From Nitratidesulfovibrio vulgaris str. Hildenborough (GTDB lineage Bacteria; Desulfobacterota; Desulfovibrionia; Desulfovibrionales; Desulfovibrionaceae): a stretch of DNA of 32,000 nucleotides. The stretch covers positions 150,001 to 182,000 of the forward strand of contig NC_002937.3 of the NCBI RefSeq assembly GCF_000195755.1, written 5' to 3'. The notes beneath the pieces were generated by a model that saw only the letters and a list, made by a program, of their open reading frames with translations, ran no database searches and was not told where the DNA came from. A program made the position numbers and the translations under genes. Of the stretch, positions 2,047 to 23,733 are shown in pieces (within the stretch, counting starts at the first letter, position 1; every line of letters begins with the position of its first letter).

Positions 2047-3411
2047 CTAGATGTCGATGGAAAGCTCTTTGAGCTTGAGCCACAACTGCTTGCGGCTGAT
2101 ACCGAGCAGGTCGGCAGCCTGTATCTTGCGGCCCCCCGTGCGTTCCAGCGCCTCCATGATGCGACGTCTCTCGAAGCGTGCCACCCCTTCGGCAAGGGAC
2201 GCCGGGGTGTCGCCCGCGTCATCGTCGCAGGCGGGTGGCATGGACTGCGTGGCTGCGCGGATGCGTTCAGGCAGGTGCCCCACGTGAATCTCCCCTTCGG
2301 TGCAGAGCAGTACGGCATGTTCCACGGCGTTGCGCAGTTCACGCACGTTGCCGGGGTAGTCGTAGGCCAGCAGGGCAAGGCGGGCCTGTTCCGAGAGCGT
2401 GGCCTGACGTTCGTGCAAGGCGCAGAATCGCCGCAGGAAGCGTTCGGTGAGAAGGGCCACGTCGCTGCCACGTTCGCGCAGGGGCGGCAGCGTCACGGGC
2501 ACGACGTTGATGCGGTAGTAGAGGTCTTCGCGGAATCTGCCGTCGGCTATGGCCTCCTCGAGGTTCCGTGCCGTGGCGAACACCGTGCGCACGTTGACCT
2601 TGCGCGGGGTGTTGCCCCCCACGGGGGTCACCTCCTGGTCTTCCAGCACACGCAGCAGCTTCGCCTGAAGGGGCAGGGGCATCTCGCCCACCTCGTCGAA
2701 GAACAGCGTACCGCCGTCGGCAGCCTCGAACTTGCCGATGCGCGCCTGCTGGGCACCGGTGAAGGCTCCCTTCTCGTGCCCGAACAACTCCGATTCGAGC
2801 AACTGTTCCGGCAGTGCCGCGCAGTTGATCTTGATGAACGGCCTGTCGCGGCGCTTGCTGCGGCGATGCAGCGCACCCGCCACCAGTTCCTTGCCCGACC
2901 CGCTGGGGCCGAGCACGAGTACCGGCACACAGGCGTCGGCGAGGGCGCGGATGCGGTCGAAGACCTTGAGCATGGCCGGGCTTTCGCCGATGAACTCGCC
3001 TTCTTCACGTTCTCCGCGCAGTCTGTCGTTCTCGCGCTTGAGGTCGAGAAAGCGGAAGAACCGTTCGACGGCGATGAGCAGCCCGTCACTCTGGAAGGGC
3101 TTGCACAGGAAGTCGAAGGCCCCGGCCTTGATGGCCTGTACGGCCAGTTCCACTTCGGGGAAGGCAGTGATGAGGATGACGCCCGTGCCCGGATGCATCT
3201 CGCGGATGCTGTCGAGCAGTTCCATGCCGCTCATGCCGGGCAGGCGCAGGTCGGTGATGACGAGGTCGAAGGGTCGTCGGTGCAGGGCGTGGCGTGCCGC
3301 CTCGGCGGTGTCCGCCGCGGCGACCTCGTAGCCTGCGCGCGAGAGCGCGTGCTGCATGCCGAGGCGCATGGAGAGTTCATCTTCGACGAGAAGTATGGAG
3401 TGGGGGGTCAT
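2047..3411 (-). CDS. sigma-54-dependent response regulator (NtrC family: receiver + AAA+ + Fis-type HTH)
   Basis: Receiver domain (ILLVEDE, VITDLRLPGMSG, KP). AAA+ Walker A GPSGSGKE. Sigma-54 contact loop GAFTGA in FGHEKGAFTGAQ. C-terminal HTH AADLLGISRKQLWLKLKE. The ATGA start/stop overlap with the upstream kinase gene implies an operon. Confidence 0.95.
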   Translation of the reverse strand: MTPHSILLVEDELSMRLGMQHALSRAGYEVAAADTAEAARHALHRRPFDLVITDLRLPGMSGMELLDSIREMHPGTGVILITAFPEVELAVQAIKAGAFDFLCKPFQSDGLLIAVERFFRFLDLKRENDRLRGEREEGEFIGESPAMLKVFDRIRALADACVPVLVLGPSGSGKELVAGALHRRSKRRDRPFIKINCAALPEQLLESELFGHEKGAFTGAQQARIGKFEAADGGTLFFDEVGEMPLPLQAKLLRVLEDQEVTPVGGNTPRKVNVRTVFATARNLEEAIADGRFREDLYYRINVVPVTLPPLRERGSDVALLTERFLRRFCALHERQATLSEQARLALLAYDYPGNVRELRNAVEHAVLLCTEGEIHVGHLPERIRAATQSMPPACDDDAGDTPASLAEGVARFERRRIMEALERTGGRKIQAADLLGISRKQLWLKLKELSIDI

Positions 3412-5072
3412 GGCGTCTCCCTTGCGAGTGGCAGGCTGATGACAAAGGTGGCACCGGCGGGGTGGTCTTGCCCTGCGTGTTGTCCGCCGTGCGCGTGCGG
3501 GGTGGTGTCCGGGGGCGTGTCGGTACAGGCTCCCTTGTGGGCTTCGGGGCAGCCCTCGGGGGATGCCTCTGCGGATGGTGCCTCCGGTGCGGGCGGCGAC
3601 TGTGCAGGCGGCGTCTGGATGAAGAGTGCGGAATCGGAGGGCCCCGCCTCGTCATGCGGCGGTTCCAGTGTCAGCGTGCCGCCGTGCCGCATGACGATGG
3701 ACGCCGACACGGCAAGGCCGAGTCCTGTGCCGCTGCCTGCGGGCTTGGTGGTGAAGAACGGGTCGAAGATGCGTTCGCGGTGCTCTTCGGCCACACCGGA
3801 ACCCGTATCCTGCACTTCGATGCGAACGTCGTCTCCGGCGCGACGGGCCGTGATGGTGAGCGTGCCACCGTCGGGCATGGCATCGGCCCCGTTGAGGACG
3901 AGGTTGAGCAGCACCTGCCCCATCTTGTCGGGGTCGATGGCAAGGGGGGGCACGTCGGGCGAGACATGGCGCACTACGTTGATGCGCCTGCGTTGCAGCG
4001 TGTAGTCCACGAGGGCCAGCGTGCGGTCGATGAGGTCGTCGGCACGCGCCTCGCGCACGGAAAGCGGGGCGGGGCGCGCATAGTGCATGAGTTCGCGCAC
4101 GATGCGCCGTATCTTTTCGAGTCCGTCGTCGATGACCTCGATATGCTGGCGGCGGGTGGCTTCGTCCATGCCGCCTTCGGTGAGGTTGCGGAAGCAGAGG
4201 ATGACCCCGCCGAGAGGGTTGTTGATTTCATGGGCCACGCCCGACGCCAGCTGGCCGATGGTGGCAAGCTTCTCGGTCTGGTACATGCCCTCCACTGCCC
4301 GCAGGCGTTCGCGTTCGGCGTCGCGCAGCCTGCGCGTCATCCACATGAAGCTGGCCTGCAACGTGCCTATCTCGTCATCGCGACGGGGCAGGTCGGGCAG
4401 CGGGCCCGCAAGGTCGCCGCGTGCGGTGATGTCGTTCATGGTGCGCGTAAGGGCGGCGAGGGGGCGCGCGAAGTGCCGCCCCGCATACCAGACCCCGGCG
4501 AGGGCCACCAGCAGCAGTACCGCGCTGATGCCCAGTACCTCGCGGCGCAGGGCGTCGAGGCTGCGGTACATCTCGCGCAGCGAGAAGCCGATGCGGCACA
4601 CCCCCCAGCGTTTGGAACCGATGGACAACGGCACCGCGATGTCCAGATGGGGCCCGAGGTTTGCCGTGTCCTGTCTCGATACCGTCGGAAAAGTCGCCGC
4701 CAGTGCCGTGCGGGTCGTCTCGTCGGTGTGCCGCCTGCCGTATTCGCGCAGGTTGTTGTGCGCGATGACGCGGCCTTCGGGGTCGAAGACCATGAAATAG
4801 ACGATACGCGTGTCGAGGCGCATGACGTCGGCCACGAAATAGTCGAGATAGTCCGACATGCCCGACGTGTCGACCATGCCGAGGTCTTCGTAAATACGGG
4901 CGTTGGTGAACAGCACCGCCGAGATGCGCGCGATGCCCATGCCCTGTTGCGTGGCGTTGCGCAGCAGCAGGTCCTCTTCGCGCTGGATGGTCACGAAACT
5001 GAGCACACCCGCGAAGATGGCGATGCACGGCACCGCGAAGAGGATGAACTTGGCCTGCATCCCGAATCTCAC
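3408..5072 (-). CDS. sensor histidine kinase (periplasmic sensor, HAMP, HisKA, HATPase_c with a low-complexity insert)
   Basis: Two TM segments flank a roughly 150-aa extracytoplasmic region. HAMP-like segment (RPLAALTRTMNDI...DEIGTL), H-box SGVAHEINNPLGG, N box LNLVLNGADAM, G boxes DTGSGV and GTGLGL. GTG start overlaps the upstream stop (GTGA); ATG at 5060 is an alternative. Confidence 0.9.
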   Translation of the reverse strand: MRFGMQAKFILFAVPCIAIFAGVLSFVTIQREEDLLLRNATQQGMGIARISAVLFTNARIYEDLGMVDTSGMSDYLDYFVADVMRLDTRIVYFMVFDPEGRVIAHNNLREYGRRHTDETTRTALAATFPTVSRQDTANLGPHLDIAVPLSIGSKRWGVCRIGFSLREMYRSLDALRREVLGISAVLLLVALAGVWYAGRHFARPLAALTRTMNDITARGDLAGPLPDLPRRDDEIGTLQASFMWMTRRLRDAERERLRAVEGMYQTEKLATIGQLASGVAHEINNPLGGVILCFRNLTEGGMDEATRRQHIEVIDDGLEKIRRIVRELMHYARPAPLSVREARADDLIDRTLALVDYTLQRRRINVVRHVSPDVPPLAIDPDKMGQVLLNLVLNGADAMPDGGTLTITARRAGDDVRIEVQDTGSGVAEEHRERIFDPFFTTKPAGSGTGLGLAVSASIVMRHGGTLTLEPPHDEAGPSDSALFIQTPPAQSPPAPEAPSAEASPEGCPEAHKGACTDTPPDTTPHAHGGQHAGQDHPAGATFVISLPLARETP

Positions 5073-6007
5073 GGCTGTGCCTCCTGCGTATCCGGCGACA
5101 GCCCCACCCTGCGCTCCATGGTGCGGAACATCTCGTACACCGAGGCGTCCACCGTGCCGAATCCATGGCGCAGCACTTCGTTCCAGCCTTCCGAGAGTCG
5201 GGCCACGTCGGGGGCGTCGGGGTCGATGCCAAGCAAGGCGTCACGCAGGGCGTTGCGTACCTCTTCGGGGACATCGGCCCGCGCCACGATGATGAAGCCG
5301 GGGAAGGGCTGCGTGGCGTCCACGACCTTGAGTCCCACCCCGAGGTAGCGCACGGCCATGGGTTCGCCAAGGGCCCCGGCGTCGTATTCACCGCGAAGGA
5401 CGGCACGCGCCACGGCATCGTGCGTTGTCAGGTTGGCATAGGTGGCGAAATCTTCGAGGGTGATGCCGTGTTCGGTGAGGTGGTCGAGGGGCGCGAGGTA
5501 GCTTGCGGTGGAGTCGGGCGACCCGAAGGCGAAACGCTTGCCCTTGAGGTCGTTCGGCGAGCGGATGTCCTGCCGGTCTTCGCGTGCCACGATGAGGCTT
5601 CGCGTCGTGGGGGTCCCGTCCCGGCCCAGGACGGCACAGAGCGGTATCAGCGGGGTGCGGCCCCGTGCCTGCAGGAAGGTGCGGCCCGCCAGCAGCGCGA
5701 TGTCGAGGGTGCCCGCCTCCAGCCTGTCCACGATGGTCGAGTAGCGGTGTTCCAGTACCAGTTCGAAGCGCCATGGCTGGCGTTCGGCGAGAAAGTCGAG
5801 GAACGGCTGGTACTGCTGGTAGATGACCAGCGGGTGATTCAGCGTGATGACGCCGAAGCGGTAGGCGCGGGGCTTCGTGCCCGTTCCATTGACCTGCTGC
5901 TGTGTTCCGGCTTCGGGCGGGGGCGTGGCGGCATGCGCCGGGGCTGCGCGAGACGACGCGACCGCGAGGCACAGCGCGATGAGAATCAGGGCAAGGGGGC
6001 GGGCCAT
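5069..6007 (-). CDS. PhnD-like (phosphonate/phosphite-type) periplasmic substrate-binding protein, probable kinase co-sensor
   Basis: Signal peptide MARPLALILIALCLAVASSRAAPAHA. Body (YRFGVITLNHPLVIYQQYQPFLDFL, LEAGTLDIALLAG, FAFGSPDSTASYL) resembles PhnD-family binding proteins. GGAG lies 6 nt before the ATG. Overlaps the kinase gene start. Confidence 0.8.
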   Translation of the reverse strand: MARPLALILIALCLAVASSRAAPAHAATPPPEAGTQQQVNGTGTKPRAYRFGVITLNHPLVIYQQYQPFLDFLAERQPWRFELVLEHRYSTIVDRLEAGTLDIALLAGRTFLQARGRTPLIPLCAVLGRDGTPTTRSLIVAREDRQDIRSPNDLKGKRFAFGSPDSTASYLAPLDHLTEHGITLEDFATYANLTTHDAVARAVLRGEYDAGALGEPMAVRYLGVGLKVVDATQPFPGFIIVARADVPEEVRNALRDALLGIDPDAPDVARLSEGWNEVLRHGFGTVDASVYEMFRTMERRVGLSPDTQEAQP

Positions 6008-7775: not shown

Positions 7776-7811
7776 GGGACACTCCTGAGGGCAAAAGTTT
7801 ACCTTGCCATG

Positions 7812-7827
7812 AGCAAATGGAGTGCCA
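7812..7827 (-). promoter_or_regulatory. sigma-54 -24/-12 promoter (TGGCAC-TCCAT-TTGCT)
   Basis: Complement of 7827..7812 matches TGGCAC-N5-TTGCW at all conserved positions. The GC of the -12 box is 38 nt upstream of the yeiH-type ATG. Confidence 0.8.
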
Positions 7828-7902
7828 TGCCTTTTAGGTGTTCAATCACAGATGGTTACATCTTCGATGTCGTGTTTCTCGTGTGTGTTTGCGGGAAGGG
7901 AA

Positions 7903-7973
7903 TGGAACGGTTCCACCAACGATGTTCCTTTGAGGGAACATGTTCCTGTTCGGGTACGCAGTCTGAAGGAACC
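7903..7973. promoter_or_regulatory. array of GGAAC/GTTCC half-sites; candidate enhancer (UAS) for a sigma-54 activator
   Basis: TGGAAC-G-GTTCCA (7903-7915), TGTTCC-N6-GGAACA (7923-7940), GGAACATGTTCC (7935-7946), degenerate GTTCG (7948-7952), GGAAC (7968-7972). The array lies 76-146 bp upstream of the -24 box. Confidence 0.6.
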
Positions 7974-17029: not shown

Positions 17030-17704
17030 TCAGCGCACTGCCGTGGCGACAAGGGACAGAAGGTCACCCGGAGCCTCGAGAAGCAGGTGCGCCCCGGCGG
17101 CCTTCAATTCCTCCGTACCTCTGAAACCCCACGGACAACCCACCGCGACCATGCCCGCCGCAAGCGCGGTACGCATATCCACGTTGCTGTCGCCTACGAA
17201 GGCTACCTCGGAAGGCGCGATGCCCCACGCCGATGCCATGCGCAGTGCCGCTTCAGGGTGCGGTTTGCGGGGTACGTCGTCCTTCGCCCCGGCGACCATG
17301 CCGAAGCGTGAAGGGCCGAAATAGTGTTCGACCATCTCCACGGTGAAGGGGTGGGGCTTGTTGGAGAGGACTGCCATGGGGATGCCCCTGATGCCGAGGG
17401 CTTCAAGCATGGGCATGATGCCCGGATAGGGCGCTGTGAACACGTCCCACGCGGTCCTGTATGCCACGCCCATGCGTTCCACCCCCCGGCGCACAGCCTC
17501 TTCGGGGCTGCCGGGAGGCAGGGCGCGGCGTAGCAGAGTCTCCATCCCATCACCCACGAAGTGCCTGTAGGCGTCGACAGGATGTGCGGGATGTCCGCCC
17601 GCCATGAGTGCGGCGTTGCCAGCCTCGGCAAGGTCTCGCAAGGTATCCAGCAAGGTTCCATCAAGGTCGAAGATGCAGGCGCGGATGTTCATGCCCGCCT
17701 TCAT
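17030..17704 (-). CDS. HAD-superfamily hydrolase, phosphoglycolate phosphatase-like
   Basis: Motif I FDLDGTLLDT, motif II LSNK, motif III/IV VGDSNVDMRTALAAG. Alternative start at the second Met (17692). Confidence 0.8.
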   Translation of the reverse strand: MKAGMNIRACIFDLDGTLLDTLRDLAEAGNAALMAGGHPAHPVDAYRHFVGDGMETLLRRALPPGSPEEAVRRGVERMGVAYRTAWDVFTAPYPGIMPMLEALGIRGIPMAVLSNKPHPFTVEMVEHYFGPSRFGMVAGAKDDVPRKPHPEAALRMASAWGIAPSEVAFVGDSNVDMRTALAAGMVAVGCPWGFRGTEELKAAGAHLLLEAPGDLLSLVATAVR

Positions 17705-18004
17705 ACTGCATGCCGCCCTGCCCTGTACAGATTCAAGGGGCGCGGCAAGGCGCGTCGCAACGTCTCGTCGTGGCGCAGGATATCTTTATAGCTGTAAAAA
17801 AAGCTGACACCGGGTATCGTGGGCGTTGATGGTGTGCTGTGTGTGACTTTATCATTATATTCTGGTGTGTTGCTGTTAAGACGTTAGATTGCGGGCTACA
17901 TCTGGCAAGAATGCTGACGGTGGATGCCCGGAAGGAGGTCGCAGACTTATAAAAATCTTTTACTACAGTTGGTTATGAATAAAACCATGCCTGTGGGTAC
18001 GGTA

Positions 18005-18020
18005 TGGCACACCCGTTGCT
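18005..18020 (+). promoter_or_regulatory. sigma-54 -24/-12 promoter (TGGCAC-ACCCG-TTGCT)
   Basis: Exact match to TGGCAC-N5-TTGCW, about 93 nt upstream of ATG 18112. It is preceded by the most AT-rich stretch of the window (about 17780-17990). Confidence 0.8.
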
Positions 18021-18111
18021 TTTGTGAACGCGTGTCTCCGCCGCAGGGCTGCGGCAGGGGGTGCGACACTAGGTTCCGAAACTGCGTGCAGATTTACGGA
18101 GGAGTCACGTA

Positions 18112-19359
18112 ATGGGTTTCGCAAGAGACGTATATGAATTCATGAAGGCAGGAGCCGTGGCCCACGCCAAGTGGGATATCGAGGTCTCCACGTCCATCAT
18201 CCGCAACCGCAAGAAGATGCTCATCCTGCTTGCGATGCTGGTGCCCGTGTTCCTGTTCAACTTCGCCGAAGCGGGTGCGGTGCTTGGCAGCAAGACCGCC
18301 TACGCCCCGGCCTTCTACACGACGAAGATCTTCTTCGTCTCCATCGCAGTGGGTCTTGCGGCGGGCCTCATCACCGGCTGTATCGGTGCGGGGGGTGGCT
18401 TCATCATCACCCCGGCACTCATGGCCGCGGGGGTCAAGGGCATTCTCGCCGTCGGTACCGACCTCTTCCACATCTTCGCCAAGGCCATCATGGGCACCAC
18501 GGTGCACAAGAAGCTGGGTAACGTGTCGGTGAAGCTGGCGGTGTTCTTCCTCATCGGTTCCGGTGGCGGTACGTTCATAGGCGGCGCCATCAACAAGGGC
18601 CTGTACAACAAGGACCCGCTGCTCTCCGAACTGTTCATCAGCACCATCTACGCGGTGCTTCTGGGCTTCCTCGGCTTCTACGCGCTGTATGACTTCATCA
18701 AGGCCAGCCGTGCAGGCGGCGGCGGTGACGCCCACGGCGGCGGTTCCGGCACCACGGCCATCTCCGTGAAGCTGCAGGGCATGAACGTGCCCCCCATGAT
18801 CACCTTCGACGAAGACCTCGTGCCCGGCGGCCGTCGCATCTCCGGCTGGATCGTTGCCGCAGGCGGCGTCGTGGTGGGTATCCTCGCGGCCATCATGGGC
18901 GTCGGCGGCGGCTTCGTCACCTTCCCCATGTTCGTGTACATCTTCGGCGTGTCCTCCATGACCACCGTGGGTACCGACATCCTTCAGATCATCTTCACCG
19001 CCGGTCTCGGCGCCATCGCCCAGTACGCCATCTACGGCTTCGTGTTCTACACGCTGGCCATGGGCATGCTGCTCGGTTCGCTGCTCGGCATCCAGATCGG
19101 TGCGCTGACCACCAAGGTGGTCAAGGGCATCCATATCCGCGGCTTCTACGCCGTCTCCATCATCGCGGGCTTCATCAACCGTGCCGCCACGCTGCCCAAG
19201 AAGCTGGTGGAACTGGAGATGGTGTCGCTGCCCAAGGCGTTCGTCACCAACGTCGAGTTCTTCGGCAACATCATCTTCTGGGTGGTGGTCGCCGTGTTCG
19301 GCGTGTGGGTCTTCGGTAAGTTCTTCGCCAACATAGGCAAGCTGAGAGCGGAGGCGTAA
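18112..19359 (+). CDS. TauE/SafE (DUF81) family anion exporter-like membrane protein
   Basis: Two internal repeats carry the family pattern (GCIGAGGGFIITPALMAAGV...AVGTDL and IMGVGGGFVTFPMFVYIFGV...TVGTDI). GGAGGAG lies 7 nt upstream of the ATG. Confidence 0.75.
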   Translation: MGFARDVYEFMKAGAVAHAKWDIEVSTSIIRNRKKMLILLAMLVPVFLFNFAEAGAVLGSKTAYAPAFYTTKIFFVSIAVGLAAGLITGCIGAGGGFIITPALMAAGVKGILAVGTDLFHIFAKAIMGTTVHKKLGNVSVKLAVFFLIGSGGGTFIGGAINKGLYNKDPLLSELFISTIYAVLLGFLGFYALYDFIKASRAGGGGDAHGGGSGTTAISVKLQGMNVPPMITFDEDLVPGGRRISGWIVAAGGVVVGILAAIMGVGGGFVTFPMFVYIFGVSSMTTVGTDILQIIFTAGLGAIAQYAIYGFVFYTLAMGMLLGSLLGIQIGALTTKVVKGIHIRGFYAVSIIAGFINRAATLPKKLVELEMVSLPKAFVTNVEFFGNIIFWVVVAVFGVWVFGKFFANIGKLRAEA

Positions 19360-19360
19360 G

Positions 19361-20083
19361 ATGATCAACAACAAGTCGAGCTTCATGAAGGGATTGCTGC
19401 TTCTGGTCTCCTTCGCCGCAGTCTTCGTAGTCATCATGACGCCGGTCTTCCCGACCGACTCGGGCAAGAAGGAAAACGGTCTGCACTATGCGGACGACCT
19501 GTTCAACAAGCTGTCGAAGGGTTCCTCGTACTTCATCCCCGAAGTGCAGAAGAAGGTCGACGGTCTCGCTGGCAAGCAGATTGACCTTGCTGTGACGGTG
19601 AAGAAGGCCGACAAGGCCGCCGATGCCGCGAAGGTGTTCACCGCCGCTGGCATGACGGCCACGGCTGAAGGTGAAATCCTGAAGGTGAAGGGCGACCTCG
19701 GTGCGCTGCTGAGCGCCACCGTGAAGGACGCCGACTCCATGTACCATAACGATGCGGCTGCTGTTTCCGCCCGTTACGGCATGGAAGCCGCCGATGCCAT
19801 GGAAGCCTCGTGGGAAGCCTACGCCGGCATGATCAAGGCCCTGCAGAAGGCCAAGCTCATCCCCGAATCGCAGGCTGTGGACATGGTGATGAAGAAGGCC
19901 ATCGAACCCGGTTACAACTTCTACGGCATCAATGCCGCGAAGGTGACCGACAAGATGGGCATCATGACCGGTCTGCTCGTCTTCTACGTCATCTACACCA
20001 TGTGGTACGGCTTCGCCATCTTCGAACTGTTCGAGGGCATCGGCCTGACCATGAAGAAGTCCAAGGTGAAGCAGGAAGCCTAG
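19361..20083 (+). CDS. uncharacterised membrane protein (N-terminal TM, Ala/Lys-rich helical domain, C-terminal hydrophobic segment)
   Basis: The ATG lies 1 nt after the upstream TAA, with GGAGG 8 nt upstream. Codon bias matches the genome. I recognise no family. Confidence 0.7.
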   Translation: MINNKSSFMKGLLLLVSFAAVFVVIMTPVFPTDSGKKENGLHYADDLFNKLSKGSSYFIPEVQKKVDGLAGKQIDLAVTVKKADKAADAAKVFTAAGMTATAEGEILKVKGDLGALLSATVKDADSMYHNDAAAVSARYGMEAADAMEASWEAYAGMIKALQKAKLIPESQAVDMVMKKAIEPGYNFYGINAAKVTDKMGIMTGLLVFYVIYTMWYGFAIFELFEGIGLTMKKSKVKQEA

Positions 20084-23574: not shown

Positions 23575-23733
23575 TCGTTGCTGGCGTGGTACAGGCACGG
23601 TCCTGCCGCCCTTCGGGTGGCGCATAGCTGTCCCGGTGGGAAAGCGGCGCCGGGGGGTGGCGACATCCGAAAGCCTTTGTCGTTGCGCGTTCAATGGTAC
23701 GCTGTTTGCTCTCTCTTGTGCGGAGCATCATGT

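Follow-up and report, generated by a model that had tools for sequence, protein, structure and literature searches.

The window analyzed here is a stretch of 32,000 nucleotides of the Nitratidesulfovibrio vulgaris str. Hildenborough (DvH) chromosome (contig NC_002937.3, positions 150,001 to 182,000 of the forward strand), and positions below refer to it unless genome coordinates are stated. Our interest is in the element TGGCACACCCGTTGCT at 18005-18020, which lies in the intergenic region between a divergent phosphatase gene and the two-gene operon DVU0132-DVU0133, whose first product is a TauE/SafE (TSUP) permease. An initial annotation, made from the sequence alone, had read this element as a full-consensus sigma-54 promoter preceded by AT-rich, bendable DNA. 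We find that it is a real sigma-54 promoter, already catalogued in the literature, and that it very probably drives the operon in a sigma-54 (RpoN)-dependent manner through the enhancer TGTAAAAAAAGCTGACA and the activators DVU0110 and/or DVUA0057. The locus comprises the following features.

17030-17704 (-): HAD-family phosphatase DVU0130, divergent, bounding the intergenic region, without a sigma-54 element of its own
17774-17790 (+): CGCAGGATATCTTTATA, a degenerate candidate for a partner site, located 19 bp ahead of the strong enhancer and predicted from orthologs
17793-17809 (+): upstream activating sequence (UAS, the enhancer) TGTAAAAAAAGCTGACA, starting 212 bp before the -24 element; published DVU0110/DVUA0057 binding site, offset -442 from DVU0132 (Kazakov 2015, Additional file 4)
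17903-17919 (+): second UAS-like element TGGCAAGAATGCTGACG, weak; the strong UAS lies 110 bp upstream and the -24 element 102 bp downstream
17948-17964 (no strand): AT-rich dyad TATAAAAATCTTTTACT containing the palindrome 17950-17962; possibly a weak integration host factor (IHF) site or a weak activator-like site, or functionless
18003-18021 (+): 19-mer TATGGCACACCCGTTGCTT, identical to the published DVU0132 promoter, offset -232, regulators DVU0110 and DVUA0057 (Kazakov 2015, Additional file 6)
18005-18020 (+): sigma-54 -24/-12 element TGGCACACCCGTTGCT, i.e., TGGCAC-N5-TTGCT, with GG at 18006-18007 and GC at 18018-18019
18031-18111 (+): predicted 81-nt leader; transcription start inferred near 18031, 12 nt after the GC, from -24/-12 geometry
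18112-19359 (+): TauE/SafE (TSUP) permease of 415 aa, DVU0132 with a corrected start (Pfam PF01925, E = 1e-35)
19361-20083 (+): 240-aa membrane protein DVU0133, the second operon gene, without a Pfam match, starting 2 nt after the TauE stop

A catalogued sigma-54 promoter upstream of DVU0132

On the plus strand, 18005-18020 reads TGGCAC-ACCCG-TTGCT, as the initial annotation had it: an exact match to TGGCAC-N5-TTGCW in which GG and GC stand one helical turn apart. Such matches are rare by chance, with 0.05 +/- 0.22 found in 100 dinucleotide-preserving shuffles against two in the 32 kb, and two matches were reached in 0/100 shuffles. The other copy, at 7812-7827 (-), is what the initial annotation had called the first promoter. 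We also scored the window against a weight matrix trained on 84 published DvH sigma-54 promoters, a set that excludes the three of the window itself. The top match was 18003-18021, at 18.8 bits (training median 17.1); the best match outside the published promoters scored 12.5 bits, and no minus-strand match was present in the intergenic region. The element is intergenic and on the coding strand, upstream of a gene with a ribosome-binding site (RBS). From its end to ATG 18112 are 92 nt, which bears out the early estimate of about 93, and only short, spurious open reading frames (ORFs) lie between.

The DvH sigma-54 regulome was reconstructed by Kazakov et al. (2015, BMC Genomics 16:919, PMC4641369), who list the 19-mer TATGGCACACCCGTTGCTT as the promoter of DVU0132 and label the operon DVU0132-DVU0133 a “predicted TSUP family transporter”. 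Binding data come from Rajeev et al. (2011, Genome Biol 12:R99, PMC3333781). In their DNA affinity purification (DAP-chip) experiments, the top DVU0110 peak covers genome 167640-168348 and ends 113 nt inside DVU0132, which puts the annotated start of the gene at genome 168235; the top DVUA0057 peak covers genome 167815-167984, or window 17815-17984. DVU0130 is listed as sharing a DAP-chip peak. Both DVU0110 and DVUA0057 bound the DVU0132 intergenic region in vitro, and among the nearby sigma-54 promoters tested by gel shift, DVU0110 bound the DVU0132 upstream fragment only. The published offsets (-232 for the promoter and -442 for the UAS, both implying a DVU0132 start at window 18235) and the DAP-chip coordinates agree in placing the window at genome 150001-182000. 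Since the features of the window are identical to entries in these two papers, the promoter, its enhancer and both activators were already in the literature, in 2011 and 2015.

The UAS fits the 17-bp TGT-N11-ACA site type found upstream of sigma-54 promoters. With a matrix from 26 published DVUA0057 sites (TauE sites excluded; real sites score 14.2-24.9 bits), TGTAAAAAAAGCTGACA at 17793-17809 scores 22.7 bits and ranks first in the window. A second matrix, derived from orthologous loci, again puts it at the top, at 35.5 bits (real sites at least 23.9).

Conservation of the promoter and its enhancer

The comparison of orthologous upstream regions that the initial annotation had proposed was run on 80 loci of species-representative genomes, to which four contigs from closer relatives were added; a UAS was called where a 17-mer lay within 3 mismatches of the published TGTAAAAAAAGCTGACA. 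The -24/-12 element and the UAS 17-mer were conserved together in 27/80 loci, in identical orientation throughout. Including the window, UAS and promoter co-occurred in 28/28 cases, and UAS-like 17-mers numbered only 34 in 540 kb of locus DNA. The pair is thus kept far beyond the six genomes originally analyzed, reaching Solidesulfovibrio and metagenome-assembled genomes (MAGs) of Syntrophobacteraceae and Desulfobacteraceae.

The distance between the two elements, measured start to start, is strikingly constant, at 110-117 bp in 22 loci that include Solidesulfovibrio, D. piger and its relatives, and the Syntrophobacteraceae and Desulfobacteraceae MAGs. This constancy is loosened in the D. vulgaris lineage alone, where the spacing is 212 bp in the window, 210, 195 and 186 bp in its nearest relatives, and 356-357 bp in two genomes of Nitratidesulfovibrio. 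Relatives with 97-89% TauE identity share an unchanged -24/-12 element, located at -96 to -110 from the ATG, and the main conserved blocks of their intergenic region are the UAS, the promoter, the RBS and, in part, a second GCTGAC element. Alignment of the 112-bp modules of other orthologs yields three conserved blocks: an extended UAS, a mid-spacer block and the promoter. The extended UAS has the form TTTACA-N3-TGTAAAAAAAGCTGACA, giving tandem YGT-N11-ACA sites 19-20 bp apart, a layout that resembles the plasmid targets of DVUA0057. At the corresponding place in the window, the candidate partner site 17774-17790 scores only about 3 bits.

Because of the shuffle statistics and this conservation, we exclude a chance match without promoter function as exceedingly improbable. 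Such a reading could appeal to our literature search, which brought up no in vivo data. However, it would have to account for a motif expected 0.05 times per window whose position and orientation are conserved across Desulfobacterota families, which is linked to a conserved UAS, and whose upstream region is bound by regulators in published in vitro experiments.

Several loci depart from the simple arrangement. Solidesulfovibrio-type loci (L002, L003, L007, L023, L028, L032, L048, L051 and L069 in our set) carry the UAS and promoter about 525 nt before TauE. Roughly 40 nt downstream of the promoter comes a conserved RBS with its start (GGAGCGTATGGTGAATCGTCC), which suggests that an extra small gene heads the operon there. 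One locus, L012, has two complete UAS-promoter modules upstream of TauE (about 2282-2390 and 2783-2915), about 500 bp apart, with spacings of 91 and 114 bp.

The AT-rich spacer

As the initial annotation had pointed out, the most AT-rich DNA of the window lies upstream of the promoter: the ten 200-nt segments of lowest GC content in the 32 kb all start at 17761-17851 (GC 0.43-0.48 versus 0.653 overall), and the most AT-rich stretch spans approximately 17760-18050. Both features that had been singled out in it, an A7 run and the palindrome TAAAA-ATC-TTTTA (TAAAAATCTTTTA) at 17950-17962, are present. They had been taken together as IHF-type bending DNA between enhancer and promoter, and here the two part ways. 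The A7 run (17796-17802), which is the sole A7 or T7 run in 32 kb, falls inside the published, conserved site TGTAAAAAAAGCTGACA; it is therefore the core of the activator-binding site, that is, the enhancer itself rather than a bend between enhancer and promoter. The palindrome is a weak candidate, although a role for IHF at this promoter is plausible. The dyad that contains it, 17948-17964, scores 9.0 bits with the 26-site DVUA0057 matrix, under the threshold, and matches the IHF core WATCAANNNNTTR with 2 mismatches.

It could still be argued that the tract as a whole, with its A7 run and palindrome, is mainly an IHF-bent spacer and that the real enhancer is another inverted repeat further upstream. 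We consider this unlikely, though worth keeping in mind. The DvH orp sigma-54 promoters require IHF, and the functional sites there show only 67-78% agreement with the consensus (Fievet et al. 2014, PLoS One 9:e86507). The intergenic region contains four 2-mismatch IHF-like sites (at 17850, 17874, 17948 and 17950, the palindrome among them), which are no more degenerate than functional DvH sites; IHF may therefore assist the DVU0132 promoter as it does others in this organism. In addition, the mid-spacer block conserved in the 112-bp-spaced orthologs, ATTCAA-N4-TTR, resembles an IHF site. Yet the window offers a poor counterpart to this block at the same position, no IHF core with 1 mismatch or fewer occurs anywhere in the window, and neither the palindrome nor the site at 17850-17862 is kept in L081, L083 or L085, the first of these being the 97% relative. 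The A7 run belongs to a strongly conserved site with a published activator.

A possible second enhancer

The spacer also contains a weaker trace of the UAS. The element at 17903-17919 ranks second in the window with the ortholog-derived matrix, at 13.0 bits, and its distance from the promoter is near the canonical spacing in orthologs. A 22-nt direct repeat (17787-17808 and 17897-17918; 73% identical, exactly 110 bp apart) joins the strong UAS to this proximal copy. The proximal element is kept at 101 bp from the promoter in L081, and it stands at the center of the DVUA0057 DAP-chip peak (genome 167815-167984). It is possible that 17903-17919 is a decayed second enhancer; the repeat is only suggestive of a decayed 110-bp duplication.

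Taken further, these observations would describe a dual enhancer, in which a tandem duplication of about 110 bp produced the 212-bp spacing; the distal copy (17793-17809) would have stayed strong and the proximal one (17903-17919) decayed, and the two paralogous activators may use them differently. We find this doubtful. The canonical spacing of 110-117 bp elsewhere would fit, and the two 110-bp halves are 35% identical without gaps versus 26% expected, a value reached by 27/2000 shuffles. On the other hand, a gapped alignment of the halves is not significant (38/500 shuffles reach its score), and a complete duplication of 110 bp in the spacer was set aside as unsupported by that alignment. 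The proximal element falls well short of the real sites (at least 23.9 bits) and has neither the TGT nor the ACA end. L083 and L085, with spacings of 195 and 186 bp, do not carry it, and the resolution of the array peaks is too low to tell which site is bound.

A broader scenario, to which we give slightly less credence still, is that the D. vulgaris lineage expanded an ancestral module of about 112 bp, possibly by a 110-bp tandem duplication, into one with a strong distal and a decayed proximal enhancer, on which DVU0110 and DVUA0057 would act differently, and that the plasmid would thereby gain control of the operon. If true, a plasmid-borne regulator of exopolysaccharide and biofilm genes, DVUA0057, would have gained control of a transporter operon deeply conserved among sulfate reducers.

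Activators

The initial annotation had concluded that this promoter answers to an activator other than that of the first promoter, encoded outside the window. The published regulators agree with this: DVUA0057 is on the plasmid pDV1 (Kazakov 2015, PMC4641369; Rajeev 2011, PMC3333781), and DVU0110 lies left of the window by gene numbering, as the window starts at about DVU0116/0117. The window itself holds one activator gene and two other published sigma-54 promoters, one with its site.

2047-3411 (-): NtrC-type sigma-54 activator, the response regulator at the DVU0118 position; sole sigma-54 AAA+ gene in the window
7811-7829 (-): DVU0123 promoter, exact match to Kazakov 2015 Additional file 6
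7922-7941 (-): DVU0118 site ATGTTCCCTCAAAGGAACAT, exact match to Kazakov 2015 Additional file 4
23693-23711 (+): DVU0139 promoter AATGGTACGCTGTTTGCTC, exact match to Kazakov 2015 Additional file 6

A tblastn search with a sigma-54 AAA+ domain found no second activator gene in the window. The in-window activator adjoins genes for a histidine kinase, a periplasmic binding protein, a Usp protein and a YeiH-family membrane protein, the last being the gene served by the DVU0123 promoter; this cognate activator and the kinase and binding-protein genes lie downstream of that promoter, at 2047-6007 (-).

As the sole sigma-54 activator of the window, this protein might be thought to act on the DVU0132 promoter as well, which we judge very unlikely. 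The DAP-chip targets of DVU0118 are DVU0120-DVU0123 only (Rajeev 2011, PMC3333781), and neither its site ATGTTCCCTCAAAGGAACAT nor the GGAAC/GTTCC repeats associated with it are found upstream of the DVU0132 promoter. Seven copies of GGAAC/GTTCC lie upstream of the first promoter, in the 7900-7970 region, against none in 17705-18004 and a single copy at 18073, in the leader; this upholds the early remark that the motif is absent here. Likewise, the first promoter has the palindrome ATGTTCC-N6-GGAACAT upstream of it, at 7922-7941, and the DVU0132 promoter does not.

Other genomes offer a further view of the activator. In 28 loci, the gene just before the TauE operon encodes a sigma-54 activator. 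Eleven of these loci bear the UAS, with the activator gene immediately upstream of it. The activators of these 11 share one helix-turn-helix (HTH) type and, over 42 aa, are 60-71% identical to one and the same DvH peptide, which appears to be DVU0110. The name depends on an apparent shift of labels in the supplement of Kazakov et al.: the row labels of their Additional file 2, at least in its text form, seem to be displaced by one. By synteny and coordinates the in-window activator is DVU0118; its HTH-bearing C-terminus (2062-2187, -) is 100% identical to the peptide labelled 'DVU0539' in that file. For the activators beside TauE in other genomes, the best match there is the peptide labelled 'DVU0118'. 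The peptide labelled DVU0110 gave only weak matches as a probe and was discarded, as the labels appear shifted.

Operon genes, start codon and leader

The published offsets count from a DVU0132 start at 18235. We place the start at ATG 18112 (N-terminus MGFARDVYEFMK...), which is probably correct on three grounds: residues 1-41 of the longer protein are strongly conserved (M1, R5, E9, F10, K12, A17-A19, W21, D22 and others), TauE homologs of 415-420 aa cover 100% of the 415-aa ORF, and the RBS GGAGGAG (18098-18104) lies before ATG 18112 in a block, ACGGAGGAGTC, that is invariant in close relatives. Counted back from this start codon, the 19-mer begins at a distance of 109 nt and the UAS at 319 nt. 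The published start would thus probably be 123 nt too far downstream, and the promoter-to-gene distance 109 rather than 232 nt.

A 40-aa GTG ORF at 17947-18069 (-) occupies the position of the old DVU0131 “hypothetical protein” and overlaps the promoter and leader; it is probably a spurious gene call. The computed fold of the leader pairs its 5' end, CUCCGCC (18036-18042), with the RBS region and contains the hairpin GCCGCAGGGCUGCGGC; this fold is not significant (z = -1.6) and is kept in the 97% relative only. No Rfam match was obtained in 17650-18200 at a permissive threshold, no intrinsic terminator was found, and megablast of the region against plasmids gave no match.

A homolog of DVU0133 follows TauE in 84/85 loci. 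The pair shows unusually strong conservation among sulfate reducers, even between phyla (Desulfobacterota and Nitrospirota/Thermodesulfovibrionia), and among the top-scoring loci TauE is 73-87% and its partner 46-82% identical. TauE/DVU0133 is thus among the most conserved uncharacterized membrane modules of sulfate reducers; a review of sulfate transporters gives no function for the TSUP clade of DVU0132, and a known regulator provides a handle on it. In Nitrospirota, the pair is often accompanied by a neighboring sigma-54 activator whose HTH is of another type, and neither a TGTAAAAAAAGCTGACA site nor a consensus -24/-12 element is recognizable.

Elsewhere in the window, the DVU0139 promoter AATGGTACGCTGTTTGCTC at 23693-23711 (+) was published without an assigned activator. 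It overlaps ATG 23694 of a long histidine-kinase ORF, and because of this overlap the ORF probably starts at ATG 23772 instead, as the published -79 offset implies.

Proposed mechanism

In the reading that we favor, sigma-54 RNA polymerase would be held as a closed complex on GG 18006-18007 and GC 18018-18019. An NtrC-type response regulator (chromosomal DVU0110 and/or plasmid-borne DVUA0057) would occupy the enhancer at 17793-17809, 212 bp upstream, loop over the AT-rich spacer, and hydrolyze ATP to open the promoter. Transcription would then begin near 18031 and yield an 81-nt leader before ATG 18112. In vivo, the promoter is expected to depend on rpoN, and the regulator would respond to a sensed signal; IHF may assist.

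A number of points weigh against this reading or narrow it. The regulator binding data are in vitro and of array resolution only, and the DVUA0057 peak (17815-17984) just misses the 17-mer UAS at 17793-17809. Full-text literature searches for DVU0132 and DVU0110 matched only Kazakov 2015 and Rajeev 2011 and found no in vivo promoter data, and the paper on DvH fitness by random barcode transposon sequencing (RB-TnSeq) makes no mention of DVU0132, DVU0133 or TSUP. Most Nitrospirota orthologs and several gut Desulfovibrio are without both the UAS and the -24/-12 element; sigma-54 control would therefore be lineage-specific.

Finally, the spacer contains two weak sigma-70-like matches, so an additional promoter is conceivable. 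That such a promoter drives the operon, mainly or in addition, with the sigma-54 element playing a minor part, is in our view improbable. Sigma-70-type promoters are frequent in AT-rich DNA, and the sequence at 17826-17855 (+) matches at 9/12 positions. However, two matches compare with 0.8 +/- 0.9 expected, which is not significant, and the 17826-17855 block is unconserved in relatives, in contrast to the invariant -24/-12 element.

The sigma-54 promoter call made from raw sequence was correct but adds little beyond the data already published for this model sulfate reducer. The points added here are minor: the start codon at 18112, a possible decayed second enhancer, and the finding that DVU0110-type activator genes adjoin the operon in other genomes.

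Comparison with known systems

The closest known system is the published DVU0132-DVU0133 promoter, which is the same element: the 19-mer TATGGCACACCCGTTGCTT, the UAS TGTAAAAAAAGCTGACA, the flanking genes and the genome coordinates all agree. The published entry counts offsets from a start at 18235 and gives a single UAS, whereas our analysis suggests a start at 18112, a degenerate partner site and a weak proximal copy.

The pDV1 targets of DVUA0057, which are PEP-CTERM/exopolysaccharide genes (DVUA0030, DVUA0032, DVUA0036 and DVUA0089), share the TGT-N11-ACA 17-bp site type before a -24/-12 element, often as tandem sites 19-20 bp apart. Their sites are near-palindromic (TGTCGGA...TCCGACA), while the TauE site is asymmetric and A-rich; DVU0110 binds the latter as well, and what the TauE site controls is a transporter operon, whereas the plasmid sites control exopolysaccharide genes.

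In the same organism, the orp1/orp2 promoters (OrpR/DVU2106 and IHF; Fievet 2014) have the same three-part layout of UAS, AT-rich spacer and -24/-12 element. There, IHF binding and dependence have been demonstrated, with IHF sites centered at -43 and -79 and UAS at -88 and -131 (Fievet 2014). At the DVU0132 promoter, by contrast, about 230 bp separate the UAS from the predicted start, and no IHF site that is convincing or conserved was found.

The DVU0123 promoter (7811-7829, -) is likewise a full-consensus sigma-54 promoter before a transporter operon, in that case of the YeiH/PSE-family. DVU0118, its activator, is encoded beside it, and the palindrome ATGTTCCCTCAAAGGAACAT at 7922-7941 serves as its UAS; the TauE promoter shares neither trait.

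The general architecture is that of E. coli glnAp2, where NtrC, an activator of the response-regulator type, binds 17-bp dyads about 100-140 bp upstream of the -24/-12 element and acts by looping. The DVU0132 promoter differs from glnAp2 in its activator, signal and regulated function, and in a spacing of 186-357 bp within the D. vulgaris lineage versus 110-117 bp in its orthologs.

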